Positions 21,277-58,918 of a stretch of DNA of 64,000 bases are shown here, in pieces (the stretch's first letter is position 1; each line of letters starts with the position of its first letter). The position numbers and the translations under genes are program-made. The DNA lies in contig CM097886.1 in the NCBI GenBank assembly GCA_044892525.1, positions 161,870,312-161,934,311 on the forward strand, written 5' to 3'. Source of the stretch: Schmidtea polychroa. Taxonomy: Eukaryota. Below the pieces are notes generated by a model. It had not been told where the DNA came from, searched no databases, and worked only from the letters and a program-made list of their open reading frames with translations.

Positions 21277-21662
21277 TGTAGTGCCTCTGACTAGCACTTT
21301 TATCAATTTAATAATTAAACTAAAAAATTATTATTAAATTAATTAAATTAAAATTAAATTAAAAACGATTGTTTAAATAATCCTGTCTTTTTCTAAAAGA
21401 AATCATCAAATTCAATATAGAAAGAAACAATGAATTATTTAACTTCGCAATCATCAAATCGAGTCAAAATCATTAAATCATATATGCCAGAAATTCAAGA
21501 AACAGAGACCTTAGTCTTATTAGCAATGATCTCTCTGATTATAGTTAATATCTTCAACAATCTCCATACAATCTCCAGATCAAGTGTTCGCGCTTTCGTC
21601 GTAATATTGACTAATGTTAATTTGAATAAATTCCCTATTCGAAATAATTGTATGTCTCTAAA
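21277..21662 (+). repeat. 3' LTR
   Basis: Copy of the 5' LTR with about 10 substitutions and a 30-bp deletion. Confidence 0.95.
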
Positions 21663-32749: not shown

Positions 32750-35700
32750 CTCAATTAGTTATAGGGTTTTCCGACCTATTTAGACACTTTAACGATCAAA
32801 TTAGACATTTCAAAAAAGTGATATATATTTCACAATCAATTTAGACAATTTTCCAATCAATTTAGACAATAAGTTTGGCAAATCCACAACATTTTTATTC
32901 ATATATCAATTCCATATTTCTACTTCTTTCGATATAAGTTAACATTCTCCTGAAATACCCTCCACAATCTTCACTTGTTAGGATGTCAAATCCTGCCATA
33001 ATCAAATCATTTAATTCATTTTCGTTGTTTACATTACCTCTGAGCACATGATTCTTCCATTTACTGAAACAAGTCTCAATAATGTTAAGAAATGGAGAGT
33101 AGGGGGGTAGATATACAACTTTGATGTTTTCAGCTTCACATATGGAAATAAAACGAGCACAATGATGTATACGAGCGTTGTCGATGATAACAATTGGATC
33201 TGTAATTCCTTTGTTTATCGATAAATTGTTTAACTCTACCATATAACTCAAAAATTTCTCCCCGTTTATAGGTCCTGGATTTATTTCATACTTTAGAGTT
33301 CCATACTTTGATACTGCTGCAATAACGGAAATGTTGCGAGATCTTGTCGCCGGTGTATTTACAATGACACTTGTACCAACTAAACTCCTCCCCCGTTTGA
33401 CTCTTGTGCAAACCTGGAACCCAACTTCATCCACAAATACAAATGCTTTATCATCATTATTTAAAAGCATACTTAAAAATCTCTCAGCGTAGATACGTCT
33501 CTTCTCCAATGTCGTAGGATCGTTTCTCTTAACCGGTGAAAGTGTTACGCATTTCAAAGTATAATGGAAATTGCGTAAACAACGATCAATGGTGGGGATA
33601 GATACATTTTTCCCAATATTATTTATCGTCATCTCAACCAAGTTTTTCAGTGTCAGAATTGGGTTTTCATCAACCCATTCTTTAATAGTTTGTTTTTCAC
33701 TCGGAGTCAATTTCGATCTTTTATCGCCGCCCCTTTTCAGTGGTGTTATTCTTCCTTCAGATTCCCACCTTTTTACGATATTATATACACTTGTTCTTTT
33801 AATTGCGACCATTTCAGATATGCTGGAAATCGTAATGTTCTGAGAATAAAGCGAAATCACACGCTCTCTTGCGTGCTGGTCAATTGTATCATACTTTTTT
33901 ACATGCGAATCTACACTGACAGTCGTTTCCAATTCAACAGAGGCATTATTTGATTCGTCCCTCACATCATTCACCCCCGGGGATGATGGCTCGTTTGTGT
34001 CAATAACGTTATTGTTTATGTGCCGGTCATTTACGTCATTTACCGCTGTTTCTTCGTTATTATTCATGGGTATCAAATGCAGAGGGAATGTAGACATATT
34101 TTAAATTGTTTAATAAGTATTCTTTAATTGATTGTCTAAATTGATTGGAAAATTGTCTAAATTGATTGTGAAATATATATCACTTTTTTGAAATGTCTAA
34201 TTTGATCGTTAAAGTGTCTAAATAGGTCGGAAAACCCTATATTTAAATATCTCTAATATCTCCTTGTTTAAAAGGTTTTGGCCAATCAACGTTGCGAATT
34301 ATCATTTTTCCATCTCTGCTTCGTAATTCATAACTGTTTGCATGGATCTTTCTAACAACGACAAAAATTCCTGTATATCGATCTTCTTTTTTCCCTCACA
34401 TCTACTTTAACTAAAACTTCTTCATTTATATCGAATTCTCGGTGTATCCGGTTCTTATTTTTATAATTTAAATTTTTTTTGTTTTGATTGCACTTCCTCA
34501 ACTATTTTACTTCTATCGTTGTATATTCTTTTATTATGATTCCATATCCGTAAACCAAATACTGCTTCTGAGTGACTTTTTCCAATTGTACTTAGAATTT
34601 TTCTGGCAACTTATTGGCTGCATTTTCATCTTTAAATTATAATTTTTTGAATACCCCTTGTAATTTTTTTTCAATGATTGTTAAAAATATGAATTCAAAA
34701 TTTATATATTCATCTAAATGCGATAGTATATAAAATTTAAACTTTAGAAAGTAAAAAACTACATAATTTTTTGTTTAGGGGTGCCATGAAAAAACTCGAT
34801 TTTTTGGTGTTTAGTGGGCTAGAAAAGGTTGGGAATCACTGATTTAGAATATAAATTAATTTTAACAAAGGATGTTTAAAAATCAAATCTAGGATGTTAT
34901 AAAACTAGGACCCTGGACGTGATTTTGTTGAGTCTGATAAGTTTAATAAATTAAATAGTGTGAGTAAGGTTGATTATCCTAAATTTGTGTTGGTATTGCC
35001 GTAATCAGAAGGTTTTAAGGATTAAAAAAGGAAGATAAGAAAGCAGTTATATAATTTGTTTATTAATAAGTCTAGAACTCCGGTAGGACTATGTTCTGAT
35101 CTAGTTTTACAGTATACACCAAACACCACTGAGATACGTTTCCTATAATATTAAAAACTGCACACAAGCAAAACATACACTAAAAAACACATACAAACTT
35201 TCGATTCATAGAAATGCACCGCTGAGATACGTTTCTATAATAACTTTATTTTAGACAATTTTGAGAAAAAAATAATGGCAAAAAAAATTTTAAATATATT
35301 TTTAATGAAAATATCAAAAGCAGATGGATTTAATTCAATGTTTTTTCAATCTAGATTTGATTTCCTGAAAGAAGCCCCTTATATTGAGCTCAGAAAAAAA
35401 ATTACAAAAATTAAAAAATATATTTTTTTTATACTCGTCGATTTTTCCAAAAATGTTTTAGAAAAATACATATTTTTGGTGATTGATTTATTTATTTAAT
35501 TATAATTAAAAATATATTTTATTCACATTATATCGAAACAATTCCAAAATACTTAAAAATAAATGTCATAAAATTCCTAAAAAAACCCTGAAAATTAATT
35601 AAAAATAATTTATAATAGAAATGTTGATAAAAAAGTAATATTTAATCCTTTCCTGTCTGAATTAAGAGTTGAAAATGGCGTCCTAAAATCACTTGTTGCT

Positions 35701-38700
35701 TCTTTCAAATGACAAAAACAACAAAATATTTTGTAAAAGGCGGGATTAAATGATTTTACATTAAAAGTATAGATCTTCCTTATCGATCATAAATAAAAAT
35801 ATTATACCCACCAGTCCATAGATGTCTATACCTGTATGAAATATATCATGATTCCATATGTCATTATTAGCCAGGAAATGTTAAGAACTTGAATAATGAT
35901 CTCATGTCTATATGGATCAAAATTCAATCCTTAAAATTTACTTAAAATTAAACAACTTACCTGAAACCCAAGCCATTGCTGTACACGCCAACCACCACTA
36001 TAGAAAACGTATCTCAGTCGTTTTTGGTGTACTTGTAATGGGTGTAATACCACATACATTGGAGAGACTTCCCGTCATCTCTGTATTCGAGCTCGAGAGC
36101 ATTATAGACCGAAGGCATTGAGCACAATAAGGGCTGTAAGATTAAAATAGGTATGTCTGATTTTAAAATTTTATTTAAAAATTTCGATAATTATTGGGAA
36201 CGTGTAATTTATGAGGCGTTATTGATAAAGTCATTGAATCCGAAAATTAATGTGCAGAATGCAGTGAATACTTGTGTTTTAAATGTTTTTAAATAATTTT
36301 CTGAATATTGTATGTATCGATTTTTCATGTTAAATTAAATAATTAATAAATTATTAAATTAAATTCTAAATGTTAAAAATTAATATATTATAATTATAAT
36401 ATTTTAAAAGAATGAAATGTTTTTATATAATTAATTTTAACAAAGTTTTGTTATTTATAATTCGATAGATACGTATCAAATGCTTGTATTTACTGAGAAT
36501 TTCAATTTGTTTTGTGCACTCTAATACGAAATCCATAAAATTCACGAAAGAAATCAAAATATAGTTAAGATAAATAATTTAACAGTTTTGACATGTAATT
36601 CCACTTGCATCTCTTTTTTATATATTAACAAATTTTTCTCAATCTGAAATTCTGTTAATATTGTAGATTGTCGACATGTCACGAAGTCATAATTATTTGC
36701 ATAGAATGATTTGCTTACACAGTATTCAGAACCTCTCTGAAGTTCTTGCATCAGATATGATTCAAAAGCATTTCCTTCCTATTTTGAATACGCTTGTTTC
36801 TGATCCTGTTCCGAATGTTCGGTTTAAGGTAAATTATATCATTTTTATAATTTTATATTTGATGAAAAAAATAGCGTTTGTTACCTAAAATATCAGGAGG
36901 CAGAAACTTTGAATTAATTGTTTAAAATAAACATTTATTTTAAAAACTTTCTGTTTATTTATTTTTAAAAATCCATATACACCAGAGTCTCTTTTTACAG
37001 GTCTATTTTTACACGGTCTTACTTTAACACGGTTTTTTTACACGATTTATTTTAATTCACACGGTTTTTATAAAAATTAATTTTAACCAATTGCATCGTA
37101 AGTATGTGCCAACACTGTAAATTAAAACCATCAACTTTAAATGCGTGTTGGAAAGCGGTTTGGCCAGATTGTGTCAAAGATAAAAATTGCGTCCCTCCAA
37201 TTTCAACCAAATATTCCAACATTATAAATTTATCAATGGCAGTTGGTGGAATAGGGTTTGAAGATTTGGCTTTTGAAGATATTGAAGAAGTCATACTAGA
37301 TCCAGTTATTAGCGATGAGTCATTAATAGAAGTTGCTCTAGAGGGTACTGATTGCCGAGAAAAAAGTGGAATTGTGACGTCTGCTCCTCTCAGTGCCGGT
37401 TTAATTATAGAAGGATTGCAATTGGCAGAAAAGTTGGAAAATATTTTTATTGAAAACGAACCCAATTTTGAGCGAGGTTTGAAATTCCAAAAAGATCTGA
37501 AATTCTGTATGGCTCGTTATAAAGAATTATTGAAAGACATAAACAAGAGCGTACCTAACAATACGTCAACAGCAAAAAATTCTCGTGACTCGTGCACTTC
37601 ATTGACTTCACAGCTTCTGTATGAAAATACAGAACCTAATATTTCGAGCGAGGAATCTGAATGTGAAATCAATTTTAAACCAGTCTCAAGAAAGCGCATA
37701 CGTATTTCTTCAGACACTGACAGTGATTAAAAGATTATTTTTTGTTAAATTGTTAATTATAAATTTATTTTTTCGTAATGTCTATACATTTATACATTGA
37801 ATATGCTTATTTTTCTAAACTATTGTTATTGAATAAAAAAAAGTTCTTAATTCTGCTGTTATTGGATCTAATCTACGAAAATACTTTTTTTTTCTTTGTT
37901 AGTAATTTTTTTACATTATTTTTAACACGGTTTTTTTACACGGTTTTTTTTACACGGTACCTATCTACCGTGTAAAAAAAGACTTAGGTATATAGCTATA
38001 AATATATTTTTAAATAATCTGGCATAATTTCTAGTTATTTTTATTATACATTCTTTCCCACTAACAATTGGTTTGAATTGTACTTGATGTAATAAAAATA
38101 ATGTTAAATTTTTAATGTTTTGTAACAGTAAAAAGTACATTCATTTGCTTATAAAAGTACATATCATTAAATATATAAAAATTAAAATATCTATATTCAA
38201 TATTTAACGATTCTACTTTCGTACACCAATGATATTCCACATTTTCATTGCTGAGAAAATATTAAACCACTCATATCTAGTTTTAAAATAATTCGTTTAC
38301 TTGTCATTCTAAAAATGTAATAAATCATCATTGCCTTGAACTGATTTATATGCAGCATCACAATATGTTTCAGGTTTTTATTAAGTTCTCGAAGTATCAT
38401 AATCCTTTATTTGTTTTGCTTTTTTCAGAATTTGAAATTTTTTCAGGTTGCCGTTTACTGTCGTTATTATTACTTTATTACATTCTTTTAAAAAGCCATC
38501 TAAAAACTTAAATAAACATAACTCAAGTTAATTGAAAATTATCATACTTAACACGTTGCGTGCGACGTGACCCACTGGTGATCATCTCACTATAATATTA
38601 TGAATATCTGAATTCACATACAAGTGCCCCTAGGTGAAGCACAAGATTTTTATTACCCTAAGAGAGCTGAAAATTACGCACAATTTTCCACGAAGATATC

Positions 38701-40860
38701 TCAAGCAGAACTGAAGGGACGGAGCTTAGAAGTTTGCCGCAATATACCATATATAATGCCATCGCACAGAACGTGTTAAACATTCAATCCTTTTCACTTA
38801 ACTTCCATCGGTTCATGATTATTCGAATTATACAAATATACTTTTTGATATTTTAAAACACAACTTTTCACCATCAAAATATTTATATTTTTAAGTTCGT
38901 TTTACAGTCAAAATATCAAAATGAGAATTCCTTATTTTATTTTAAAAAAATCAACCATAAAAAACATGGTTTTTGAAACTCTTTATGAAGAAGATGAAAG
39001 ATTCTAATAATTTTAATTAGAAATTTTGTTAAATTTTAAAAATATATTAAAAAGAAGATTGAAATTTAGCATTTTTAAAAATATTTTTATCGTTTTTTTA
39101 ATGATGATTTGGATAAGTTCATTAGGAGATACGAGATTTATTTCGATGCTAAAGGCATCAATAAAAAAGAACAGGATAGATTGACTGCATGTATGATCGA
39201 AGAGGATCTATTGGAGAAATGGACAAAAACAATTAAAAATGCTGAAGGATTTCAAGCCAAGTTACGAATGGCATTTGATTACGAGTGACGTAATAAAAGA
39301 TATGGAAAGTTTATTGAATTATAAAAGAAGAGGCGAATAGATGACCAAACAAACTTACTATTTAGTTTTGAATTGTTAATAATTGTTACTACAGAAAACG
39401 GTTAACATGATTAATTAATTACCGAATTATTTATTATTTAGAATTTGTAATCAACTTTTTTCGGAATAATTAGCAGAAATAGGTGGTGTAAAAGTGGAGG
39501 ACATATTATCTATTACAAATGCATTAAATATAAGATGGATAATTGAGAGTCAAGATTCAGGATTCGATGAAACGGATCAGGAAGTGACTCGAGAAATTGA
39601 TGAACCTACCGATTGTATAGATCATGTCGTTGATAATATTATGAAATGTGGAGATAATGATTGTGAATGTGTTAATGAACGCTAAATTTAAAATTTTATT
39701 TTTATACATAAGAAATAATTAAAAAAATTAATATTTATTTAAATATTTAAAAAACTTATACAATAAAGCAACTCATGTTGTGAGTTTCATAAAGTTTTTC
39801 ATTTTGCTTTTGATTTCATCACTTTCTTTAGCATTGCGGACGAGTTGGATGATAGTAACCCATCCACCATTGTCCTCTATCCACGGTGAAAACATTGATT
39901 TAATTATCTAAAAAATGAATAAAAATAATATTTTTTAAAAAAATAAATAATTTACTTCTAAAGACCACTGATAATAGTATTCTGAGTCATGTTGGCTTTT
40001 GGCAATGATTATCTTCATGTAGGTGAACCCTGCAATTATCCTTGTCCATTTCATGTCTTCGTCGAAAAGTCATTGAAATATTCTGTTGAAGTAATACTTC
40101 TTGGTTTCCAGGTATTCCATCTCCATCATTTGCTGATATATTCATCTTCAATAATTTGTTCGGTAAGATTGTCCAGAAAAATTTTTAATATACTCCTATT
40201 TTTACTACTGTTTGTGTGTGTGCAATATGATTCTGATAGGTTAATATAGTATAAATGTAAAATAAAAGAGATTTGATTTGATACAACATGAATGTGTTAT
40301 TTCTATTGGTAATTAGTATTATAAGCGTGTGGTCCCACAATACAACAATAACTGAAATAAATCAATGTGTTTGTCCAAATACCGCCAAGTTGATAGAAAT
40401 TTTAACTAGTAATGATAGGTCAAACTGGTTAAAACCTCCAGAAAAAAGATTATTTAAAAGAATGGAGAATTTAGAAAACAGCCATGATTTATCATTTGAA
40501 TATATACAAAAGATAAAACTTAAATTAGATGATCATCTTGATGATTTCAAAAAATCAATTGTTGAAAATAAAAAGAATATTAAAATTATTAAGAACATGA
40601 TGATTTGTTAAAAAGATTGAATTAATAATATTCGAAACTCAAACAATGAAAGGATCGATAGGAAATCTGAAAACCAATTCAACGTCACCAATTTCAAACA
40701 ATGGTGCCGCAAATATCAGCACATCAATGTTTAGATTACCATTGTTACTTTTAAATTATTTTTTTGTTTAATAACTGTATTAATCTGGTTTATTGTTCTG
40801 TAATTTAAAATTTTGAACCTTGGACCCTTCATCATACTCGCCTCCCAAATATCTTTCGAA

Positions 40861-40906
<46 letters not shown>

Positions 40907-43900
40907 GTTTGAAAAAATTCGAAGGCCCTTGACCCTTTGAAGGTTCAGGACAGCTCTTCAAGACCTTTCGAATGAAATTTTTTGAAATGAGTCATACCGA
41001 TGAGTCATCAAAAATAAAAAAATTCTTGGGGGTGTTTTTCATATACACCCCACATAATGTCTTTGTTTAATGATGAGTCATGGAGCACACTTCCTTCTAC
41101 TTGTGGGAAAGAAGGTTATGTCAAGAAATACGGTTTAAAAGATGCAACAGAATTGGTCATAGATCTGAAAAATGTTATACAAAGTCGAGTTACAAGAAAA
41201 CGATAGAGAAACAAAGACCGACAGGAAATAGATACAGACGGATTAATGGAATCGAGGAATAGGAAATGGAATCGTGCTTAGAGACAGATGAAGATAATTT
41301 TAGTAGGATGTACTCAAACAAAATTATACTTATTTTGAGAAGAAATTGTTTGATTATAATTGTTTATTTCCTGCAATAAATTGTAGATGTAAATAGTAGA
41401 AATAGAAAATTAGACTAACACTAAATATTCTATTAAATTTGTAAAGCAAAGAAGTCTTGAAAGTTGTTGGGAGGAAACCGTTGATGGTATATATATTATA
41501 AGAACTTCTTTCAATTGTCACCTAATTTCTTTTCAATTGACGTATTTATTAAAAAATTGACTATGAATCAGTGAAGATATCGATGTTTTATTGATATGTT
41601 TACTGATTCAGTCAATTTTTAGATTTTTAATTGTAAATTTCAATTGTACATTTCATTCAATTTAAACAATAAACCTACAAATAACAATATCCAGAAATTA
41701 ACTACATATAATTTAATTTTTAATTACAACAATTCCCTTCGAAATTTGAAGAATTCGTTCCAAATTTTCATAACGTTAAGCGAAATGATGTTAAACAGAG
41801 TACGAACCCTTTTCCAAAATATGAGATCAATGAAAAATAAACAAATTTTATTACGATTTATGAAATTCATTTAATATATGTATGACTTAGAAATACATAA
41901 ATAAAACAAATTGTTAAAAATAAAATTAAATAAAACAAATAAATTTCAATCACAAAGGATACAAGGTCTTAAAAAATAGTTTTTTTTCAAATATATTTTC
42001 AGCCTGTCATAATAATTATTTCGCTTACAGGAATATTTCTTGCCTTCTAATCTTTAGTTGACATGTTTAAAATTCATTTCACTTTGATCATTTTTGTGTT
42101 ACAGTTAAAGATGTCGTTGATTGTGTGACTGTAAGGAAGACTAATCATAATCATGCAAGTTTGAATAAAAATTATCTAAAATTTGAATTATACTGAGTAA
42201 CGTTAAACGAGGTATTATTGTATAATATTAAAAAAATTATCAAAAATAAGTGACAGAATTGACATGCAATTCCAAAAAAATAAAATGGCAAAGGGGTAAA
42301 ACAACAGTTAAATTATATTTTATTCCACTAAGGAATTTCATAAAACAAGGTGACCTGAAAATCCAATAAGTTCGAAAGATTATTTAAAAATTAAATGATT
42401 TATAAACTAAAATTGATTAAAATGCCGTTTTAGTTCGAATGTAACGTGACCCCGAATTTAGAATACTCGTAAAAAAATTAAAATTAAGGGAAATCCAATC
42501 AGATAAGCGTTTGGTTAGATAATAAATTTAATTAATATAAATCAAAATTTAATAAAAATAAAATGTTAAAAATTGTCACGTTATATTCGGGCTAATACGG
42601 TAGTAAAATTGTTGAGCTCTTTGTATCGTAGTATTCGTAACACATTGAGAATCCTAAATTGGATATATTTATGAATAAACAACATTTTTTAAACTAGCTC
42701 TCATTCTTTAGGTATAGTGAATCGGGTTTTTCAAAATTAAAAGGTGTGTATTGTAAATGCGCCAATTTAATGAACTTGTCCTCAATTGTCAAATAAAATA
42801 ATAGTGCAAACTATAATTAGATAATTCATAACACGTAAATATGTGACAAAATTGAATTTATTATAAAACGCTGTAGTTTTAGATTAATTGCTTATGTTGA
42901 TTGTCAGGTTTACATTGTGTTAAATTCCGAGATTTTATATTTTGCAATGCAAATCTCGATTTGAAATGTGTGTTCCTTCTAATTATAATTAATTGTTTAA
43001 TTTCACTTATTAATTTATCCACTGATTTTTTTGTTTGTTTTAATTAAGCTTTGTTTATCCGATATTTTAGTTCACTTTCGATTTCGATTCCAAATTTCTA
43101 AAACTATTTTTTCCACTTAATTTAGTACTAATTTAATTCACACTACATATAATCTAATAATAAATGAAAATGTTGAGGATACCTAAATAATTAAATAAAA
43201 TAATTAATAAATTGTGTAAATTAATAGGGGAGGAATGTATAAAAGTAAAAGAATTCGCTGGAGTAGGAGTAAAAAATAAAAATAAAAAAGTGAGAAGACA
43301 ATAGCATAAGTCAAGTAAGTGAAATAATAAACTAATACAAGGTTATTATTAATTAATAAATACAAATTTAAAAGAAAAAACAAAAACAACTTGTAAAATG
43401 AAATTGTTTTATCTTCACAGCGTTTAAGAGATAACACGAGGATCAGTAGAGAAGTCGGATTTGTTTTTTGATGAATCAATTGTAGATTATCTGTAAATAT
43501 AATTAAATAACGGAGTATAAAAGTGAAACACAATTTAGAATAAATGTCACGAGAGAATAGGATTAGAAAACGAAATATTATATAAAATTACCGAATTAAA
43601 GTATTACCGGATCGAAGAAATAATTTCAAATCAGATTGTTATATTGAATATTTTTAATTTAAAGCAAAGAAAGCGATTAGATCAATTCTCCCTGTTATTG
43701 TAATCTTTTCGAAGTTGTAATAATCACTTAATCCACTGTTTCTATATTAACTCATTTTGTGTCATTGTAAAATTGTTATGAATTGTTCTGATCAATAAAT
43801 TCGTTATTGTTGTCAACCAAGACATGCTTTTTGGAGTTAGATCAATAATTCTAAATTTCACTTTTCATCGAAAACACCAACCAAAATATAATTAAAAATT

Positions 43901-45879
43901 AGATTCTTAGAAATTGCGCAAAAATTTACAATATAATAGACGCACATAAACACTGTCACCATAATAAATGGAAATTTTGTTATGTTACGAAACATTTGTC
44001 AGGATTTTTATTACACAATTTACTTATAAAATCAGTCAATTTTTTTATTAAATATTTTTTCAAAATTGGAAAAATTTGGCATGTTTAATATAAATTGTTT
44101 GTAAAAAATTAATGTATATTTTTAAATAATTTTTTTCCTGATCCTATCAATTATGTATTATGGTATCTCGTTGTGTGTAGCGGAGAAGATAGAAAATAGA
44201 AAAAAGGATAATTTCGAAATAAAGTTTTTGCCAGCATATGAAGATCTCAAAATAATCATCTGGAAAGTAATTGTGACCTCCTATGGCTTGTTAGGAGTGG
44301 TAGAATGATACGAAATCGGAAATGGCATGTTAGGGGTGGTTATGGGTATTTGAGAGCACTATAAGTCCGTAACCCTGAATTAATGTTTTTGACATGTCAC
44401 TGGTTTGAACTCAAGTTTCACAATCAGGTCTTCCTTACTCATTTCTTGGTTTGCTTTACGATATTTCGGAATGAACCCCAAATTCCTAAGAATTTCATTA
44501 ATAGCATCCCAAAAATAGAAAGCGTCAAGGCTTTTTGTGTGATGTTGATCTTTGAATTGGCATCTCTGAACAGTTTATTCTGTTGTAATAATAATTGTAG
44601 TTTGTTATTATTATTATTATGACTATTGTATAAAATAATTAAAAAACTATATAGTGTAATTCTCTATAGTAAATTATTACTATACAGAATTACAAATAAA
44701 TTAAAAAATACAACAAATAAGATAAAAATCGATTGGAAGAAAGTGAACTAAAGAAAATTGAAGTTGCAAATATTTTACTAAACAAAAACGATTATTTCGC
44801 AAAGATCTTTACCAAAATTGAACGAGAAAATATACTCTAAGTTCAGTCTCTTTCGGATGATTGAAAAACTAATTCCTTCCTATATCTGATGATCACCGCG
44901 TAACTAGGGTTGCCACCTTTTCGGGTTCCGGGTTTAACTATTATTTCTCAGGACGACGTAAGTAAAATTGAATATGCACTAAATTATGTCAGCTCCGTCT
45001 CGCGGCAGCCGTTACAACTAACACTCTTTCAATAGAAAACATCGCTACTGTAGAGACGATCGACGCGCACATTCGATTGCACCGTTTTTGCTTAAGCACG
45101 ACAATGGATAGAGAATCTCTTTTGTGTCTGTTCAGTCATTGCTAAATTGATGATAAATCTAGTCTAGTTTAATAATCCGTGATAAATGGTAAGTTATATC
45201 GATAGTTACTTTACACGCAATTAAATTGATTCTGATTTTAATAGGCTGATAGAAATTTTATTCCATTAATTATAGTGCAGAGAATAGGTTGCCATCTCTC
45301 TGGGTTTCAGTGAGTTATCTCCCGTTGAGACCCAGATATGAGGTGGCAACCCTGCGCGTAACCCGAATAGTTAAAATGCGTTACTTTTTGTTTTACAATA
45401 ATAAAATTTGTTACAATTTTATTATTTATTAATTATTTTTAGTAATTGTAATTTGTTGTAATTCATAATGGTGATTAATGCACATACACGCACCCCAGCA
45501 GTCCCGATACAACTTTTAAAGGAGACTCTGCTGGGCTAAACAGTTTCCCTATAGATATAAGAAATGACCTACAATTACCAATACATACATACAACAATAA
45601 TAGTACGACAAATAACATACAAATTCTTCGGAAACTCACAACAAAATGATTCGTTTTTTAATTTGGGAACCCACAAATCTCTCCCAGTAATCTCAATGGA
45701 TTGAATCATTTGTTAAACTGTAATCGTTTATTTAGACAGCTCAGACTTACGCAAAATTGTGTAAAAAATTGGATTCAAATTCTCAAGTGACAGTTAAAAA
45801 AGCTTTAGATAAAATGAAGGCTGACAGTGATAATGATGTAGTGTATTTTTCTCAGCAAGCCATCAAAGGACTTAAATGA
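22297..45879 (+). CDS. PPP2R1A: Serine/threonine-protein phosphatase 2A scaffold subunit A (PR65, HEAT repeats), complete 7-exon gene, 588 aa
   Basis: Exons 22297-22665, 22710-22985, 26070-26291, 26338-26610, 31783-32103, 36667-36828 and 45736-45879, all joined by GT-AG introns in one frame. Hallmark motifs [77 protein letters not shown]. Confidence 0.95.
22710..22985 (+). CDS. PPP2R1A: PP2A-A coding exon 2
   Basis: [13 protein letters not shown]...PVVVQ, after a 44-bp intron. Confidence 0.95.
23512..24899 (-). mobile_element. pogo/Tigger element (TIGD1-like), internally deleted
   Basis: TA|CAGGTATTCCCCG left end; GGTCGTAAGT right sub-terminus runs into the N gap. CENP-B HTH domains and NVDETGLYW are fused directly to the C-terminal QTTLDKFF region. 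Confidence 0.85.
24900..25242. other. Assembly gap
   Basis: 343 N bases. Confidence 1.
25654..25721. repeat. (ATT)n microsatellite
   Basis: About 22 perfect units. Confidence 0.95.
26070..26291 (+). CDS. PPP2R1A: PP2A-A coding exon 3
   Basis: [14 protein letters not shown]...LVDIYT. Confidence 0.93.
26338..26610 (+). CDS. PPP2R1A: PP2A-A coding exon 4
   Basis: [11 protein letters not shown]...LKDENAE, after a 46-bp intron. Confidence 0.93.
27324..27762. mobile_element. hAT (Buster/Charlie) MITE
   Basis: Perfect 15-bp TIR CAGGGGTGGGCAAAC and perfect TSD CTCTAAGA. Confidence 0.95.
27905..28100. repeat. 66-bp tandem repeat, about 2.7 copies
   Basis: Units at 27911, 27977 and 28043 (gtgcacgggacacgttactatagagtcgttcaattctt...). 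Confidence 0.9.
29317..31197 (+). mobile_element. pogo/Tigger element (TIGD4/6-like) with transposase pseudogene
   Basis: TA TSD. 24-bp TIRs CAGTCGAACTCGGTTACTACGAAC / CAGTCGAACTTGGTTATAACGAAC. Motifs [40 protein letters not shown]. Several frameshifts. Confidence 0.92.
31783..32103 (+). CDS. PPP2R1A: PP2A-A coding exon 5
   Basis: [11 protein letters not shown]...QYVLTK, with branch-like CACTAAC upstream. Confidence 0.95.
32402..32691 (-). mobile_element. Non-autonomous Helitron
   Basis: On the minus strand: A|TCTCTCTATATATAAAA start, GC-rich subterminal stem, CTAG|T end; inserted in an AT target. Confidence 0.8.
32762..34239 (-). mobile_element. Intact IS630-Tc1-mariner (DD34E) transposon
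   Basis: 109-bp TIRs (32762-32870 and 34131-34239) with no mismatch found by eye. TA (or TATA) TSD. Single intact ORF. Confidence 0.95.
32895..34097 (-). CDS. Tc1-like transposase, 400 aa
   Basis: Paired HTH region. Catalytic [15 protein letters not shown] and [12 protein letters not shown]; D-to-E spacing is 34. Confidence 0.95.
   Translation of the reverse strand: MSTFPLHLIPMNNNEETAVNDVNDRHINNNVIDTNEPSSPGVNDVRDESNNASVELETTVSVDSHVKKYDTIDQHARERVISLYSQNITISSISEMVAIKRTSVYNIVKRWESEGRITPLKRGGDKRSKLTPSEKQTIKEWVDENPILTLKNLVEMTINNIGKNVSIPTIDRCLRNFHYTLKCVTLSPVKRNDPTTLEKRRIYAERFLSMLLNNDDKAFVFVDEVGFQVCTRVKRGRSLVGTSVIVNTPATRSRNISVIAAVSKYGTLKYEINPGPINGEKFLSYMVELNNLSINKGITDPIVIIDNARIHHCARFISICEAENIKVVYLPPYSPFLNIIETCFSKWKNHVLRGNVNNENELNDLIMAGFDILTSEDCGGYFRRMLTYIERSRNMELIYE
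35117..36029. mobile_element. TA-flanked Tc1/mariner-type MITE (family B, copy 1)
   Basis: TA TSD. TIRs CACCAAACACCACTGAGATACGTTT / CACCAAAAACGACTGAGATACGTTT. AT-rich core homologous to 62204-62981. Confidence 0.8.
35646..35880. mobile_element. piggyBac-type MITE
   Basis: TTAA on both sides, CCTTTCCTG/CATTTCCTG ends. The homologous copy near 62725 has a single TTAA (empty site). Confidence 0.8.
36667..36828 (+). CDS. PPP2R1A: PP2A-A coding exon 6
   Basis: [14 protein letters not shown]...VPNVRFK. Confidence 0.93.
36980..37990 (+). mobile_element. pogo/Tigger deletion derivative
   Basis: TA-flanked ends CACCAGAGTCTCTTTTTAC / TACCTAAGTCTTTTTTTAC with repeated TTTTACACGG subterminal motifs. 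Confidence 0.75.
37104..37730 (+). CDS. C-terminal third of a TIGD1-like transposase (open, 208 aa)
   Basis: [13 protein letters not shown]...GGIGFEDL...DIEEVI...CMARYKELL; no HTH or DDE residues. Confidence 0.65.
   Translation: MCQHCKLKPSTLNACWKAVWPDCVKDKNCVPPISTKYSNIINLSMAVGGIGFEDLAFEDIEEVILDPVISDESLIEVALEGTDCREKSGIVTSAPLSAGLIIEGLQLAEKLENIFIENEPNFERGLKFQKDLKFCMARYKELLKDINKSVPNNTSTAKNSRDSCTSLTSQLLYENTEPNISSEESECEINFKPVSRKRIRISSDTDSD
38190..38510 (-). pseudogene. Relic of the N-terminus of a hAT transposase related to 56058-58223
   Basis: Nucleotide similarity to about 57920-58060 (atttaacgattctactttcg...ccactc.tat.tagttttaaaataatt). Confidence 0.7.
38552..38620 (+). mobile_element. Helitron 3' end followed by a Helitron 5' end
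   Basis: Hairpin CACGTTGC-GT-GCGACGTG, then CTGG|T at 38575-38579. Then A|TCTCACTATAATATTATGAAT from 38585. Confidence 0.5.
39100..39340 (+). pseudogene. Retrotransposon gag N-terminal relic
   Basis: [19 protein letters not shown]...KLRMAFD...[13 protein letters not shown]. Confidence 0.5.
39773..40232 (-). pseudogene. Bcl-2-family gene (spliced, decayed)
   Basis: BH1-like [15 protein letters not shown] and BH2 WIEDNGGW are joined in frame by a 48-bp GT-AG intron (39908-39955). One TGA at 40070-40072 and one frameshift near 40138. Stop at 39773-39775. Confidence 0.8.
40288..40771 (+). pseudogene. Putative secreted or GPI-anchored coiled-coil protein of unknown family
   Basis: Signal-peptide-like [19 protein letters not shown] runs to 40611. 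A frameshifted tail ends [31 protein letters not shown]. Confidence 0.45.
41090..41300 (+). pseudogene. gag zinc-knuckle relic
   Basis: Degenerate [10 protein letters not shown] and [12 protein letters not shown] knuckles. Confidence 0.5.
44584..45600 (+). mobile_element. Old solo LTR (family A, copy 3), approximate limits
   Basis: Degenerate versions of the family A palindrome (about 44650-44685) and of cacacgcacccc...gtcccg...tttaa.ggagact (45480-45530). No clear TSD. Confidence 0.5.
44905..45354. mobile_element. hAT MITE
   Basis: TIRs TAGGGTTGCCACCT / CAGGGTTGCCACCT, perfect TSD CGCGTAAC. Confidence 0.92.
45736..45879 (+). CDS. PPP2R1A: PP2A-A terminal coding exon 7
   Basis: [47 protein letters not shown], matching the last HEAT repeat (DxDxDVxYF). 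Confidence 0.9.
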   Translation, partial: TAQTYAKLCKKLDSNSQVTVKKALDKMKADSDNDVVYFSQQAIKGLK

Positions 45880-48258
45880 ATAGTTTCCTATTTATTGTTG
45901 TGTTTAACTTATCAGCATGATGACTTGCTCATGTGATTCTGTGGTTAAGATAATTTTTTGATTTAGTTTATATTTATGCTATATATAAATCAATAATCCC
46001 ATCAGAACGATGCATATGAAATTTATATTGTTTAGCATGTAAATTTTTAGATGCATTAGAGTCTCTCGTAGTTGGAGAAAATTTATGGTTTTGTGCAGAA
46101 GTTTTTGATTTATATACTGCATTTTTCAATATCGATTTTTGTTGTTATTATGGTGATCCATTAATAATTAAATCTCAATTACCTTTTGCTATTTGATTAT
46201 TATTGTGTTTAGTTTAAGTTTTCGTGTTGGGAGTCGTCGAACTTTGACTAATATATGAACTAATTTGTGCAAAACAATAATAAATTATTATTTAAATCTT
46301 CGGATTTTTTTTTTCGATAAAAAATAATATTTATAATTAAGAGGAATAAAGTCAAAAATTAATGGAAAAATTTTCTATGGAATAGAATTTATATTGAGGA
46401 TTGAAATGGATTAGAAACCAAGTTAAAATAGTAACTTTTAGGCAAAGTAATATCATGAAAATCTCCACAGGCCGTCAATATCGAGATTGCTCATAACATC
46501 TGTGTTTAAATAATCTTCAGAATATAAATGTTTTGGTGCTTATTCATTTTTATAATATAAACTATTTTTACAATTCTTGCACATTCGGAGGAAACGGCAT
46601 AAAGCACTTTTGAGGATGAGTCCACAAATACCTTCAAAGATTGTTAGCTCTTTTTTAAGAATAATTACCAAATTGTTTTACATTTTTAAGTTGACAGAAA
46701 TTTTGATTGAATACATATGATTAGTAATAACATAGAAATTAAAGAGTTTTACCGATTATTACCGATTTGCACTAATGTTGCTAATTAGATTTTTAATGCA
46801 TCATTAATTGTAAGATCTAGTGAAATAAAAAATTTAGATAAAAAATTTACTATTTAAAATTATTATTTATTGAATCTTAGCAAATTATAACGGATTCACC
46901 GTCGGGCTTGGCTTTTTGGGGAAATTTTTATCTATTTCTGTGAGAGAAAAAAATAATATATCTCGACAGATGTCAAAAGATAATATTGAAGTTAGAAATG
47001 TCCGGAAATGACCGGAAAACAAGAAAATTATCTACAAGTGTCAAGAGATGGCTAGGTGTAAAAGAAAGATACTAATTGGGTAAAGATAGAAAGTTATAGT
47101 AGAGACAGCACTGGAAACGAGAATATAAAAAAAACGGAATATTGAAAATTTGAAGGTTTAAAACGTAATATTGAAACCATACTTCAAAATAATAAAACGA
47201 AAAGGTTGAAAGAGTAACAGAAAAAGGAACGTGATCACTGAATCAATATGTATATTTTGCTCTCAATCGCTTTGTACTGGATAGTATGTAGATGTGATCC
47301 CCATGGACCACTGTCGATTATTTCGCATATACCCCCTCACCCCCTAGAAAATAGTACCAGTTTAGCGATTTCGCGAAATGAGTATCCGTCACTAATCGAA
47401 CGAGTTATCGCGCATTATTGATTTGTAAGTGTTGTTGACAATCAAATTATTATTTAGAGTGTTTAATCCAAGTACTACTATTTTCGTTTTGGAAAATAAA
47501 TTTTAAAAATATTAATAAATACGTATATGTATTGTTGCCATCTTCGATTTCGATATTATTAAAACCAAGAATCCCATCTGTAAATTAAGTGTGAAACATT
47601 TAGTTGCTAAATACTATATCTATACCGTCTACCAGATCTATCTTGTTATATATACAACTTTCAATTGAATGGATAGAGTATTATTCAAATCTAAATATAC
47701 AGTCTGTGAACCATTAATAAAAAAACTCAAAACACCATTTCTCAAATCAGTAATTGAATCAATCAATTGAATCGATTACTACTTGTGGAGAAGGACGATC
47801 AAAAATACACAATTCAGTTTTGTCGGACATCATCATTTTTAAATATTGTTCCACATCCTTTCCATCTATTGTTTATTCAAAATTCGTTGTAGTGTTTAGT
47901 ATAGTATATTCTAAAATCTCTGACATAACCGTTTTAGTATATATCCACTTAAGATCGAAGAATATTATTTAACAATGAACATGAAATATAAGTCGTTTCA
48001 AACATACACACATGCAACAAACAATTCACGATAATTATTAATTGTGTAATTTAATTATTAGATTACTTATAATGTTAGTTTCTGTGTTGGTGGTGGTGAA
48101 GGTTTTTTTAGTTTAGAACCTTTTGTTGTACTAGGCATCAATTTTCCAATTTCATTCATTGCATATGTTTTCAATTCTGGTAGTATATTTTGATCTTTCA
48201 TTATAATATCTATTGCTGTTTTCATGCAAATTATTAGAAGTGCAAACCTTCCAATTGT

Positions 48259-49575
48259 TTGCAACCATCAAGATCCATATTGCTTAGTGGAGCGATTTAT
48301 TTTGAACACGAGAACGACACAGTCCTAAAGAAGACAGTACAACTGACAACTGAGGAACTTAAAAGAACGGAACTTAATGTGATTAAAGAAGAGCAGGTGA
48401 GGTTTTTCTCTGAAGACCTGGCACGACTTATCAAGAATGAAAGGATAGATACCAGAAGCAGTCTGTTAAAGTTGACACCCGTTTTAGATGAGATGAAAGT
48501 GTTACGAAGTATTAGCCGCATAATTCATGCAAAGAATTTACCATGGGAGACAAAATATCCAATAATTTTATCTGAAAAGAGTTGGGTAACAAGACTAATC
48601 ATAAAATATGAAAGTTATTATATTATATGAAAGTTTGAGCCATTATGCAGGAACGCAACACGTCTTGAGTGCGTCGAACGATAAAAATATTGGATTTTGA
48701 TGGCCAAAGTAATGATCAATGCGCAATGTGTAGGAAAAGAAGAGCTAAAGGAATGAGTCAAATAATGGCACCGTTATCGGCGTTCAGGGTTTCAGAACCA
48801 TTTAGAGCTTTTTTTCACTCGGCAGTAGATTTTGCAGAACCGTTTAAAACTAAAGTAGGCAGAGGAAAAATGAGAAATTAAAGGTACATTTGCCTCTTCG
48901 TATGTTTAAAGTCATGGGCGGTACATATTGAAATGGCATATGGGTTGGATACAGATTCATTCATTCGAGCTTTTATGAGGTTTGCAGCGAGGTAAGGAAT
49001 GCCAAAATTGATGATTTCGGACAAAGGCACAAATTTTATAGGCATCACTTCTACAGTAAAGAATTTTGTAATCGACCACTTTAAAACTCAAAGAGAGTTG
49101 TCGAATCTTCAATGCAGTTGGATCTTCAATTCTCCTTCGGCACCGCATTTTGGGGAAGTTTTTGAGTCCATGATCAAATCGCCAGAGAGCAATGAATGCA
49201 ATACTGATAAGTGCAGATGTGACGGACGAAGAATTGAGAAATGTTTTGACAAGAGCTGAAATGTTGATAAATTCTCGGCCATTAGTGGTTCCAAATCATT
49301 TACTAATTGCCGGATAGAAATGAGAAGCTGTAGAAAATATAGAAGTGAAGAAAATTTCAAGTACGATGTTTCGGTGGAAATGAATTAAGGAGTTAACTCG
49401 ACACTTTTGGCGACGATGGATGAAAGAATTGGTTCCGTGCTGCAGACAAAGGGCAAAATGGAATAAGATAGTAGATGATGTTCAGGCAGGGTCAACAGTG
49501 TGGGTATTAGACAAAAAGAAAGAGTATGGAAAGTACCAAGGGGGAAGGTAATTGAATGATACCTGGAGAAAACGG
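48259..49575 (+). mobile_element. BEL/Pao retrotransposon integrase relic
   Basis: [72 protein letters not shown]. Confidence 0.88.
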
Positions 49576-52184: not shown

Positions 52185-54382
52185 CAGGGGTGCCCACTAA
52201 TTTCTCTAGGAGAGCTACATTCACATCCAAAATGTGTATGCGATCTACTTTTTTAATACTTACATAATATTTACCTACAATGCAATAAATTCATCACAAT
52301 AAAACAAATATATGTCAAAATATGGAAAATTAAACTATATAACTATTTATTATAAAAAAATGTAACTTAGGAAATCAAATTTAATGAAAATTATTTTTAT
52401 ATAGAACTTTTCGATGTTGATGCTCTACATTGGGTTGAATCCACTAGATTTTTGTAGTTTGGGATATAAGTGCTAAGACAACTTCTTAGGCTGGATTCCA
52501 AATGGTCATCTGTTAATGTTGCTCGGTACTTTGACTTTATAATTTTCATATGTGAAAATGCAGACTCACATAAATAAGTTGAACCAAAAAATGATACTAA
52601 ATTTTCGAAGCATTTTTTCAAGTTTGAATATCTATCCTCTGATAGATATTTCCATACATTTGGTTCGGAAGATCTTGATTTAATGAAGATATCATTTTGA
52701 AGTGTGATTATTTCCATTTCAAGTATAGGGATATCCATTTTAAACAAAGTTGAAATTGAATCTGCAACAATTTCTGGTTTTATTTTTGGATTAAACGGAA
52801 AGGATATAAATGCAGCCACAATTTCAAGTTTCTTGAAGTCTTGAAAACGTCTCTCGAACTCTAAAACCAAAATTTTGATCTGTTCCGGATATCTCGTAAT
52901 ATTAAAGTTGACATTTTCAGATTCTTTTAATTGTGACAACATATTTGGAAAATAACTTAAATTTTTGTCTTCTATTTTGGTAATAAGTAAATGAAGCTTT
53001 TGTATAAATGCATTGATTGAACTTATCATATCGAATATCAATTTATCCTTACCTTGTAAGTCGAGATTTAATTTATTCAGAATTGCAGTAATATCTACTA
53101 AAAATGCCAAATCCAAGAGCCAAACATCATCTTCCAATTGCTTGAACTCATCACCTCTTGCGGCAAGGAACAACTTAATCTCAGAAAGCAAATCTCTAAA
53201 TCTTTGTAAGAATTTTCCTCTACTTAGCCACCTTACATCTGAATGCATCAGTAATTCAGCAGGACCTTCGCTATTACTTTCTTCAATTTGTAATTTGAAA
53301 AGTCGTCTCTGAAGACTTCTTGCACGAATCGAGTTAGCAATTTTGAATGTTATTTCCATAATATCTCTCATATTCAGAATTTTAGCACACAAGGCTTGTT
53401 GATGAATAATACAGTGATAGGAAAGAAAATCTGGGAATTCACAATCATTCCTACAATATGCTATAAATCCGTTGTGACGCCCTGTCATAGCTGGTGCGCC
53501 ATCTGTTGTTATTGATACAAGCTTACAAATTTGGAGCTGAATGCTGTTGGCATAAGCTTTAAAATTCTGAAATATATCCTCACCTCGAGTTTTACTTTTG
53601 AGTGGTATAATTGTTAATAATTCTTCCTTCGTAGAAAAATCTTTAAAGACCATTCGAATAAAAATTATAAGCTGCGAAATATCAGCCGCATCAGTTGATT
53701 CGTCTGCTTGCAATGAAAATGCGGTACAATTTCCTATGTCTAACATTAACTGATTTTTTAAATTGGTACTTATTTCTTGGACTCTCCGTGTAACTGTATT
53801 ACGGGACAATTGCATATCAGTAATAGCAGAAATTATATCTGATTTATTTTTAAAATCACAAAATAATGATTCTGCCGCTTCTAAAAATGCTTCTTTTACA
53901 ATTACTCCATCACTAAAAGATTTCTTATTTTTTGCCAGAATGTAGCTTACTCGGAAAGATGCAGCTGTAGCTGACTTTGATTTGGATGTTAGCTTCGTAA
54001 AAATGACTGTTGAAAAGAAATGCATGTTTTCAGTTCCATGATTTTAGACTTGCGTAGTTCACTGTCAAGTGGATAATCAACTGCAAAATTCTTATGAATT
54101 GTCTTGAAATGCCTTTCCAAATTCCCTCTTTTTGGTAATGAAATAGTAGCTTTACAAATTAAGCAACAACATTTACCTTTAATCATTACAAAAAAGTACT
54201 CCTTCTCCATTTCTTCGCTATAATGATAAGTCTTGGCTTTTTTATTTAGCATTTTTAAACAAAATTAATTTAACAAAAAAGCTTAAGAAAATTTTTCACT
54301 TTGTTATTTTTTTTATGAAGATCTACTAAAAAATCCTTCGCGATCTACCGGTAGATCGCGATCGACCTTATGGGCACCCCTG
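52185..54382 (-). mobile_element. hAT Buster/Charlie (SPIN/GTF2IRD2-like) transposon
   Basis: TIR CAGGGGTGCCCA, perfect TSD ATTTATAA. Confidence 0.95.
52397..54252 (-). pseudogene. SPIN-like hAT transposase with a single frameshift at about 54005
   Basis: BED finger (CLIC...RHFKTIH), LQADESTD, ITTDGAPAM, HCIIH, VRWLSRG, FGSTYLCESAFS. ORFs 53989-54252 and 52397-54025 differ by a 1-nt loss. Confidence 0.92.
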
Positions 54383-55925: not shown

Positions 55926-58918
55926 GTGATATTCGAATTTTTTAACAACCGGTACGCATGGAAAAAAATCTATTGTAGGTTATATTTACTTCATAATAGT
56001 TATTTATTTACATATTTACATAAGAAATACATATATTATATATAATAGTATATAAAATTAATTAAATAATTTCCAAATTAAATTTTGGTTTTGGGACGGC
56101 AAATTAGGCGCGGCTGCTTTGACACGTCTGTCACTTGCCATATGATGCCCTTCTCGCAACCATAATTTAACATATGGTGTTGCATCAAAATCCTCAATTG
56201 ATTTTCCCATTAAATTTATTGTCATTAAATGACTTGTTGTTTCAATTAACAACGAATTTCTCTTATCATAAATGATATTGTTCATTGTGCTGAGTCCTCT
56301 TTCAGCTTCTGCGGAATTAACAGCAATTACATTTAAAATTCTTTTTGCTCTCAAAATAGTATTAATATTTTTAGATTCTCTATCTCGCACATCAACAAAA
56401 TCTCGAAAATCATTTACTGGAATGATGTTTTTGATTATTTTATTTAACTGCTCTAACCTATTTTCACCTTCAATCCATGGTGCTTCAAAAATATCACCCG
56501 GCCATGTTTCTGGATTTAATAAATTAAAGCAATTTAAGAGATTATTATAGTTTTCATTTTTATCGTCTAATAGCAAACGCGTTTTCATATGTTTTTCTAA
56601 ACAATCAAAAAATTTATCTCTCGAAACAACAATTGATGTTTTTTTTCTATTAATTTCAAATGGAATATTGTATTTTTTCGTTTTAATAATATCATCTGCT
56701 TCTTTTTCATATGTTCCTTTATTTAATTTTAAATGTTGGAATAGATTTATCGTTCGCCTTATCAAGCTTTCAGCTCTAATTAATGAAATATCTCTTTCTT
56801 GTAAAGCTGTAGACAGTAAAGAAATTTCTTCTAATATGTCGTTTATTAAACCTAAATCTTTTAAAAAGTTTTCATTTTTGAAATATGACATTATTCCAAT
56901 TTCTTTATTTTGACTAAAGTGAATATATAAGGCCTGATATGATTTCCAAACTGCTTTGGCGGTCCTAGCGCTACAGGCTGCCCATCGAGGACCAAATATT
57001 CTACCTATTTTGTGTACTTCAGTGCCAAGTTCTTTAGAAACATTATTTAATTCTCGTTGATGTTTATTTGAAGTATGATAATACGAATAAAGTTTATCGA
57101 GAAAATATCTAAAGTTATTTACTTCATTTACTTCTTTGATAACATCATCTAGAGTTAACTGAATACGATGAGCTAAACAGTGACAGATGCTAATACCTGG
57201 AAAATGTTCTAAAATTCTTGCAGAAACTCCAGCCTTTTTTCCTAACATTACACTAGCACCGTCTGAGCAAAATCCAATAAGATTTTCATGTAAATATTTT
57301 TCATTAAAACCATGTTTTTCAAGAACTGATATTAAGGTTTTAAAAATTATTTCTGATGTTGTTCCTTCTAATTCGACAAGATCAATAAAAACTGTTACAC
57401 TATCATCGGAATCTTGAATTTCAGATTTCAAATAAACTACTAAAACGCTTTTGTGTGAAACAGTTGAGGCTTCATCAATAATAATTGAAATTTTACAACC
57501 TGTATTTATCAGTTTTCCAAAAATAATTCTTCTTATTTCTGTAGATATAAGCTTTGCGACAAGTGGAACTATAAATCTGGAATGTAATGAAAATCCAAAA
57601 TCTACATTATTTTTTTTCTGTAAATCAATTAATTTTTTAAAATCACTGAATGGGTAATTGTTTTTAATTATGAAATAGATCGTATTAAAAATGTTTACTG
57701 TGCTGTTTAAATACTTTTCATTAGCCACATCGAAAGATTTGGAAATTATATTTGTTTCACCAATTTTTATTATTTCCCCAGCTTTTTTATGTGAAGCTGA
57801 TTCATTGTGTTCCTTCAATTTTTTTCTCATTGAATATTGTAAATTTTCTTTGTTCGAGCCATGAGCTTTGACAGAACATGATTTCCACTCCACAGAAATG
57901 TGTAAATGTTTAGCAGTTTCTAAATTTAACGATTCTACTTTCGAACACCACTGACATCCCACATTTTCATCGCTAACAACAATAAGCCACTCGTATTTAG
58001 TTTTAAAATAATTTAGTTGTTTATCATTCCAAAAATGTAGTAACGCAGCATCACGAGACGTTCCAGCTTTTTCCGATTGGTGTTGAACTTCAGAAGTATC
58101 ATCTTTTTCTTTTACCTGTTTTGTTTGATTAGAATTAGTAATATTCTCAGCTTGCTGTTCAGGGTTTTTGGTTATTTTTATAGATTTGCTAAAAAAGTCA
58201 TCCAAATTACCTTGCCTTTTCATTTTTAGGTTGAAACAAAGAAAATATTTAATAATTAATTAATAATTAATTAGAAATTTAAATCAATTTAAAATCTTCA
58301 TACTTGCACGTTAAAACTGAATTTAATAGAGATTAAAAGTAAGGGATAACCATTCACCATAAAAATATTTATACTACTAAACTTTTTATTTAGAGTAAAT
58401 ATATCAAAATAAAAATGTATTCAAAAAGGGAAATTCCCTTTTTATTAAAAGAAAAATATTTTTTTTTACAGAATTTTCCGTTAACCCTTTCAAGCTTAGT
58501 GGTTACGCAGTGAAACCACCTATTAAAATGCAACTTTACACATGCTCAGTAGGAATTTTTCAATTCCATAAATTTTGTTCTATAATTCAATGCTATCTCT
58601 TGGATTGTAGTGGAAATTAAAAGTACTAAAATTCAAATTAGACAGTTTTAAATAGATTTTTTTTTACTAAAACCGAAAAAAATTTTAAATCACAAATTTT
58701 TATTTTATTGTAAGATTTTTTGTATTTGATCGATAATGGCAGGTAAATATTTATATTTTTTTAGTAATTTAGAATGTTTTTATCAATACTTTTACTTTTA
58801 CATACTTTTACTTAAAAACATACTTTTTTTTAATATACAACAACCGGTACGGAAAATTTTAAAAATGTTAACAACCGGTACGAGCGTACCGCCCCGTACC
58901 GGCTGAATATCACCACTG
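55921..58918 (-). mobile_element. hAT transposon inserted in a (TA)n tract
   Basis: TIRs TAGTGGTGATATTC / CAGTGGTGATATTC, TATATATA on both sides, repeated subterminal ACAACCGGTACG. Confidence 0.92.
56058..58223 (-). CDS. Intact hAT transposase (KIAA1586/ZNF862-like), 721 aa
   Basis: Zinc finger CQWC...H...H, IIIDEAST, FCSDGASVM, HCLAH, PRWAA, VNSAEAERGLS; no stops. Confidence 0.92.
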   Translation of the reverse strand: MKRQGNLDDFFSKSIKITKNPEQQAENITNSNQTKQVKEKDDTSEVQHQSEKAGTSRDAALLHFWNDKQLNYFKTKYEWLIVVSDENVGCQWCSKVESLNLETAKHLHISVEWKSCSVKAHGSNKENLQYSMRKKLKEHNESASHKKAGEIIKIGETNIISKSFDVANEKYLNSTVNIFNTIYFIIKNNYPFSDFKKLIDLQKKNNVDFGFSLHSRFIVPLVAKLISTEIRRIIFGKLINTGCKISIIIDEASTVSHKSVLVVYLKSEIQDSDDSVTVFIDLVELEGTTSEIIFKTLISVLEKHGFNEKYLHENLIGFCSDGASVMLGKKAGVSARILEHFPGISICHCLAHRIQLTLDDVIKEVNEVNNFRYFLDKLYSYYHTSNKHQRELNNVSKELGTEVHKIGRIFGPRWAACSARTAKAVWKSYQALYIHFSQNKEIGIMSYFKNENFLKDLGLINDILEEISLLSTALQERDISLIRAESLIRRTINLFQHLKLNKGTYEKEADDIIKTKKYNIPFEINRKKTSIVVSRDKFFDCLEKHMKTRLLLDDKNENYNNLLNCFNLLNPETWPGDIFEAPWIEGENRLEQLNKIIKNIIPVNDFRDFVDVRDRESKNINTILRAKRILNVIAVNSAEAERGLSTMNNIIYDKRNSLLIETTSHLMTINLMGKSIEDFDATPYVKLWLREGHHMASDRRVKAAAPNLPSQNQNLIWKLFN

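Follow-up and report, generated by a model that had tools for sequence, protein, structure and literature searches.

A decayed Polinton end in a planarian PP2A-A intron and the spliced Bcl-2-like gene carried by its intact relatives

The locus inside the last PP2A-A intron

The DNA analyzed here (the window) is a 64,000-nucleotide stretch of Schmidtea polychroa contig CM097886.1 (positions 161,870,312 to 161,934,311, forward strand). The last intron of a host PP2A A-subunit gene was placed by its flanking exons, which match residues 489-538 (E 9e-17) and 546-584 (E 0.06) of the 589 residues of human PP2A-A, and the antisense location of a Bcl-2-like gene in that intron, proposed in a first-pass annotation, was confirmed. 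The features are as follows.

36829..45735, plus strand: last intron of the host PP2A A-subunit gene, containing the nested relics
39103..39361, plus strand: Ty3/gypsy gag relic, 5' half, the insertion target (gag residues 39-123 of the L027 ORF)
39347..41101, minus strand: truncated left end of a Polinton/Maverick of subfamily B, the other ~14 kb absent
39479..39679, plus strand: remnant of the next accessory ORF (acidic, ~92 aa), convergent with the Bcl-2-like gene (tblastn 62%, E 1e-21)
39728..39907, minus strand: Bcl-2-like exon 2, with BH2 and a hydrophobic C-terminal tail
39908..39955, minus strand: 48-bp phase-0 GT..AG intron, placed 16 codons upstream of where Bcl-2-family genes usually have their BH2 intron
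39956..40180, minus strand: Bcl-2-like exon 1 remnant, holding the BH1-like KWTR
40282..40611, plus strand: 109-codon accessory ORF with a hydrophobic N-terminus, open, divergent in orientation from the Bcl-2-like gene
40841..41101, minus strand: terminal inverted repeat remnant, beginning with the terminal AGTAG at 41101 (inner border approximate)
41102..41322, plus strand: 3' (C-terminal) part of the same gag relic, 82% identity, resuming right past the terminus at 41101

On the minus strand a BH1-like KWTR is followed by a BH2 W-x4-GGW motif, with the BH1 half at 40141-39956 and the BH2 half at 39907-39728, and the W-to-W distance is 39 codons without the intron (44 in human BCL2). Motif order, spacing, the change of NWGR to KWTR and the 48-bp phase-0 intron (GT..AG at 39955-39908) had all been described earlier and were seen again directly. 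A Bcl-2 profile search, suggested at the time as a check, placed the window copy above the Pfam cut-off for PF00452 (32.4 bits vs 31.4, E 1.4e-7, for 40141-39731 with stops read as X), and exon 1 by itself matched at E 5e-4. By its sequence this is a real Bcl-2-like gene.

The window copy is a dead fossil, in agreement with the earlier call of a pseudogene. Compared with relatives, its start codon was lost in an ~80-bp deletion near 40180, exon 1 has a frameshift near 40138 and a nonsense codon at 40072-40070, and exon 2 has a premature TGA at 39775-39773 ahead of the natural stop at 39730-39728. Past this TGA the frame extends to 39730 and encodes a hydrophobic tail, which relatives have open; the reported lack of a C-terminal anchor, and the likeness to anchorless viral and A1-like proteins drawn from it, rested on the premature stop and were dropped. 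Nothing in the relatives corresponds to the upstream acceptor suggested at 40233, and the N-terminus reconstructed with it begins with noncoding residues: relatives have two exons and start inside the stretch lost near 40180.

Homology to intact elements ends at 39347 and 41101. The fragment between these positions is 89% identical to its nearest copy and 86% identical to a subfamily-B element holding core genes, its AGTAG terminus is that of the L002 context and of the subfamily-B element, and the accessory ORF at 40282..40611, which has no family match in Pfam, has an open homolog in the latter (62% identity). On the basis of the terminus and this 109-codon upstream ORF, the fragment was assigned to the older subfamily B. 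Gag relics do flank the gene, as first reported, and they are two halves of one interrupted gag rather than the gene's carrier; the 5' half is 84% and 76% identical to residues 39-123 of the unbroken L027 gag ORF, which has CCHC knuckles and an aspartic protease downstream. Each gag/Polinton junction is spanned by one of 40 scored matches, namely the window itself, and these unique junctions, with the split gag, point to one Polinton insertion into a gypsy relic and a later deletion of most of the insert. By this account an old Polinton copy landed in the gag, itself in the last intron of PP2A-A, and was then cut down to a small part and decayed; the antisense placement of the Bcl-2-like relic in this gene would be incidental. 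Retroelement cargo at the window locus was ruled out by the uniqueness of the junctions. A target duplication cannot be read here, since just one element end is present. At two further loci a Polinton element has the same gypsy family nearby, a proximity that cannot be told from chance because that family is abundant.

Other decayed elements lie in the window. Pieces of another, more distant Polinton (capsid-region genes) were found at 47453-48285, downstream of PP2A-A, and decayed gypsy-like elements and long transposase-like ORFs, names that we assigned by resemblance, occur in and around PP2A-A at 493-3638 (minus strand), 17207-21294 (plus strand), 7242-9559, 32895-34100, 52397-54043 and 56058-58259.

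The carrier element and its intact copies

The genome searched was a 781-Mb assembly with four large contigs. In a DNA search the best 40 of 1180 candidates were scored, most of them near-identical to each other. Intact carrier elements are 15-17 kb long with the Bcl-2 gene near one end, and two 80-kb contexts share a 15.4-kb element with ~700-bp inverted repeats and the Bcl-2 gene first. Ends of the form AGTAG..CTACT with 6-bp target duplications were found in 7 of the 8 elements with both ends visible (two read by eye). By Pfam, the carrier encodes a TBP-like protein, a Pox_A32 packaging ATPase and an adenain cysteine protease (Peptidase_C5) above cut-off, and an integrase just under it (rve 31.2 vs 32.6, E 2.7e-7) that also has a chromodomain. 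A 407-aa ORF without a Pfam match resembles double-jelly-roll clusters (0.97 by Atlas features), the minor capsid gene was named by position alone, and an ORF of ~1340 aa, whose motifs we take to be PolB-like, has an EndoVII match in Pfam and no PolB family at E <= 0.1. Core Polinton genes are present in 10 of 13 contexts of this family (family I), the other three holding neighboring accessory ORFs alone, cut back like the window. Inverted repeats, ends, target duplications and gene set together identify the carrier as a Polinton/Maverick (adintovirus-like element).

In a protein search the best 150 of 2400 candidates were scored, and all 150 are at least 97% identical to a young copy; 148 have no stop in exon 1, a count biased upward because ranking by score favors intact copies. 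The intact paralogs that the first annotation suggested looking for do exist: at least 150 near-identical copies are carried by elements that have terminal repeats and target duplications. Its proposal of a captured apoptosis regulator borne by a transposon or virus holds in outline, the gene being Polinton cargo, and fails in its link to the retroelement gag, which belongs to a unique nested insertion. The exon-intron pattern, for which GT..AG was required, fits 28 of 32 loci, with introns of 38-52 bp at the same site, several of them not multiples of three; both exons are open in 22 of these 28, and open relatives have two exons, the second being 59 codons long with a hydrophobic tail. For 12 distinct open copies compared by the Nei-Gojobori method, dN/dS was 0.06-0.26 in 36 of 66 pairs (those with >15 differences), a range to be read with some dS values near saturation and about three independent subfamilies. 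These codon comparisons show purifying selection on the Polinton Bcl-2 gene between subfamilies.

Exons of the young family are joined without their 46-nt GT..AG intron in two contigs, one from run X1 and one from run X2. These runs belong to one study and were taken to be RNA by guess, none of the runs listed with the sequence being recorded as RNA. No intron-skipping contig was found among 13,929 contigs of run X4, and run X7 does not cover the gene. The family-I intron thus shows splicing in two probable RNA runs from a single study. According to the available text of PMC8532177, planarian Polintons are piRNA-silenced and partly desilenced in differentiation, which would give the Polinton Bcl-2 gene an expression window.

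Several structural variants were observed among the elements. The left end, including the Bcl-2 gene, is repeated inverted at the right end in three elements (L087-L092; G000:C1:224755239-224771426, C4:16006924-16023706 and C1:203692023-203701432, the repeats measuring 4.4, 1.5 and 3.2 kb); 6-bp target duplications remain at two of these elements, so they likely integrated already rearranged, and many similar inverted Bcl-2 pairs occur among the protein-search matches. At G000:C3:91747590-91778790 (L024-L027) one Polinton has landed in another member of its family, and a separate 6-bp target duplication marks each of the two. The integrase gene of a young element (L033:4266-4358, G000:C4 about 67128765) appears to be split by an intron that consists almost wholly of an (ATT)n microsatellite, bounded by GT and AG.

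A second Polinton family and the host relatives

A genome-wide Pfam scan for Bcl-2 domains returned host-like genes, Burro-type long ORFs, the family-I Polintons and a second Polinton family (family II; L079-L084, L095-L100) of ~16.6-kb elements with 1.5-kb repeats, a 60% identical PolB-like protein and a different gene order. Its Bcl-2 gene is intronless, encodes 144 aa and adjoins the same accessory genes; PF00452 scores are 33.1 bits for family I and 32.7 for family II against the cut-off of 31.4. A TBP-like gene of 149-154 aa lies near the Bcl-2 gene in both families (L033:2099-2563, L080:274-723; PF00352 above cut-off), and a TBP-like ORF was also seen 0.8 kb from the host-like Bcl-2 locus L069.

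Among host genes, P0007 (G000:C1:268544050) is a single-copy gene of two exons, the second ~3 kb downstream with a membrane tail. Its best matches are family-II copies (48% over ~109 aa, E 6e-20), with family I at 24%; it has a longer N-terminus than the Polinton genes and no intron at the family-I site, and no Polinton gene was found within 20 kb of it. The BH1 variants are KWTR in family I, CWSK in family II and RWSR in P0007, with canonical NWGR in none, and P0007 shares with the Polinton proteins the W-[ST]-[RK] form of BH1 and a Y-x2-W motif; as this form is common to a host gene, the altered BH1 is not a product of viral decay. An intron donor site right after BH2 is present at 5 of 9 host-like loci (P0007 and four paralogs) and in none of 3 Polinton copies. 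Elsewhere, at G000:C4:89.95-90.83 Mb (L057-L063), seven near-identical NWGR-type host-like Bcl-2 genes without the BH2 intron lie within 0.9 Mb.

A profile search of 1.84 billion proteins gave 53 matches, the best new one being P0010, 50% identical to P0007. In trees with intron codons masked, which are unrooted, both Polinton families, P0007, P0010, P0012 and P0013 group at 99/98 without Burro and at 89/95 with Burro included, and joining Burro Bcl-2 to the Polinton genes was not rejected (p-AU 0.09); earlier trees were weaker on the donor (SH-aLRT 81 with an incomplete tree search, and an open 12-row group in the other). The later trees were built without the window copy, without L069 and L071, and without 15-16 of the 26 outside proteins, which were short or had long branches, and at most 26 of 52 named profile-search matches were used. 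P0012 and P0013, intronless Bcl-2-family proteins from ENA/Logan records (contigs to 13.7 kb) that fall in this group, may be carried by related elements of other host species.

P0007 is the closest cellular relative by these comparisons and a candidate donor of the Polinton Bcl-2 gene. An ancestral Polinton would have taken up a processed copy of a host Bcl-2 gene, as suggested by the absence of the host BH2 intron from all element copies examined, and one Polinton lineage (family I) would afterwards have gained a new short intron. We infer this order, as the simplest reading, from unrooted trees and intron positions.

Proposed function, competing readings and significance

The C-terminal tail of open copies has a hydropathy of 1.6-1.9 over 15 residues, rather few for a complete membrane span. 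The BH1 arginine is retained in family I and absent from family II, and the BH1 glycine is replaced in both. In the available text of PMC9027176, this arginine pairs with the BH3 aspartate, canonical NWGR is not universal in viral Bcl-2 members, some of which have it altered as here, and ORFV125, with an altered motif, binds Puma ~250-fold more weakly. At the position aligned to the Gly-Asp of Bcl-xL, part of the BH3 motif L-x3-G-D that marks the pro-apoptotic Bax/Bak subgroup, family I, family II and P0007 have other residues. A family-II model (pLDDT 68) is an eight-helix bundle whose top Foldseek rows are all Bcl-2, Bcl-xL or Bcl-w (TM about 0.45-0.49, weak E >= 0.045), and in VIA Bcl-xL comes first (Z 6.6, rmsd 4.5, 106 aligned), with a score that unrelated helical proteins equal; a family-I model with intron residues left in (pLDDT 49) was too poor for use. 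The top Atlas cluster includes E1B-19K (20%) and Bcl-2 (16%), poxviral Bcl-2-like clusters follow at 0.87-0.88, and the best PDB sequence matches are Bcl-xL and Bax. A BFVD fold search returned nothing at E <= 0.001, an IMG/VR scan with alignment A1 gave 382 pattern matches and no confirmed one, and exon 1 against the 90% collection gave four candidates, of which three were intron-read-through gene calls.

DNA viruses retain Bcl-2 genes to delay host death, and our best guess for the Polinton protein, which we consider probable, is an anti-apoptotic BH3 sink held in the membrane by its tail. With ~160 aa, it would be anchored to the outer membrane of mitochondria and would take up, in its groove, the BH3 helices of Bak/Bax-like or BH3-only proteins of the host, and mitochondrial cell death would be blocked during element replication, as with adenovirus E1B-19K and the herpes- and poxvirus Bcl-2 proteins. 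The reading that we favor, on somewhat better than even terms, is of a dead, truncated Polinton end at the window locus, whose intact copies carry a spliced Bcl-2 gene likely captured from the host and likely blocking mitochondrial death.

With the same carrier and origin, the fold might instead damp autophagy or innate antiviral signaling, or decoy a host paralog. Several poxviral Bcl-2-fold proteins do such non-apoptotic jobs, the poxviral Atlas clusters fit, BH1 departs from the canonical form in the two families and their host relative, and the host subfamily has diverged from NWGR-bearing host genes; yet BH2 and the membrane tail are retained, as suits a mitochondrial or ER Bcl-2, and the best PDB sequence matches are those given above, which leaves this unlikely, if the most serious of the competitors. 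Much less likely is a protein that promotes cell death or membrane leakage and so releases element particles: the element carries virion-type genes and Bax and Bak appear among the weaker sequence and fold matches, but neither Polinton family nor P0007 has Gly-Asp at the BH3 position, and hundreds of transcribable killer copies would be costly.

The direction of capture could also be reversed, with P0007 a domesticated Polinton gene, since its nearest relatives are Polinton copies (48%, E 6e-20), ahead of any other host Bcl-2, and the trees have no root; the post-BH2 intron that P0007 has in common with four other host paralogs, its 3-kb intron, its short branch and the lack of a Polinton gene within 20 kb make this equally improbable. 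That the gene is cargo of the flanking gypsy, or a piece of a giant Burro retrotransposon, is suggested by gag relics on both sides, by the same gypsy family near a Polinton at two other loci and by the published Burro BCL2 (PMC6431247, available text); against it, both gag/Polinton junctions are confined to the window (1 of 40 scored matches each), the gene is a stand-alone two-exon unit with its intron kept in 28 of 32 loci, and the Burro-type domains belong to ORFs as long as about 3000 aa and are marginally similar, so we give it a very small chance. A plain host gene or processed pseudogene, unconnected with mobile elements, would account for a spliceosomal intron and a host-gene location, and is refuted by the dispersal of at least 150 near-identical copies in elements that have terminal repeats and target duplications; its probability is negligible.

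No description of a planarian Polinton Bcl-2 was found in the literature searched, which took in few subscription journals and not Repbase Reports, the place of annotation for planarian Polintons. Flatworm Maverick expansion and insertions are described, with Bcl-2 unmentioned in the text available (10.64898/2025.12.11.693146, 10.1101/2025.04.19.649669). Bcl-2 cargo of such elements has been reported from other animals: Bcl2 and IAP homologs were noted in adintoviruses (Starrett et al. 2021, PMC8502044), and UniProt A0A5H3CWZ2 is named 'Bcl2, Branchiostoma lancelet adintovirus'. There, too, Bcl2 is an accessory gene beside integrase, packaging ATPase and adenain, and beside capsid genes and PolB, for which the planarian elements have candidates. 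The available part of PMC8502044 reports no planarian example, donor, splicing, selection or copy number, whereas the planarian gene has a candidate donor in the host, a spliced intron and carriers of two families. What is new is the candidate donor gene, the proposed intron loss and gain, and the two carrier families. Adenovirus E1B-19K and the herpes- and poxviral Bcl-2 proteins likewise have BH1/BH2 and a tail, in a short Bcl-2 fold of the kind predicted here; they are tested inhibitors of free viruses, whereas the planarian gene is known from sequence, has an intron and resides in a germline-integrating, high-copy element, and no close sequence relative of it was found among viral Bcl-2 proteins. 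In planarians, a BCL2-like domain is described in Burro/GYPSM1 LTR retrotransposons (PMC6431247, in part) and an IAP function of Burro1 B-IAP is cited in the available part of PMC13465017. That is anti-death cargo of a giant mobile element in the same kind of host, as the Polinton gene would be, but the Burro domain is part of a retrotransposon polyprotein, whereas the Polinton gene is stand-alone, two-exon and in a DNA element, with marginal similarity.

A bolder interpretation, which we regard as doubtful, is that hundreds of intact spliced Polinton Bcl-2 genes form a second mobile-element anti-death system beside the Burro1 IAP, that a germline virus-like element would partly set the death threshold of its regenerating flatworm host, and that Polintons, and perhaps Burro too, took genes from a divergent Bcl-2 subfamily of that host. 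The candidate donor in the same genome, the ancestral intron loss and the new intron make for an unusually readable capture history. Polintons carry virus-like genes, and there has been hardly any experimental work on what they do in animals; a putative anti-death gene, spliced and under selection, in at least 150 near-identical copies makes it a testable question whether Polintons manipulate host cell death.
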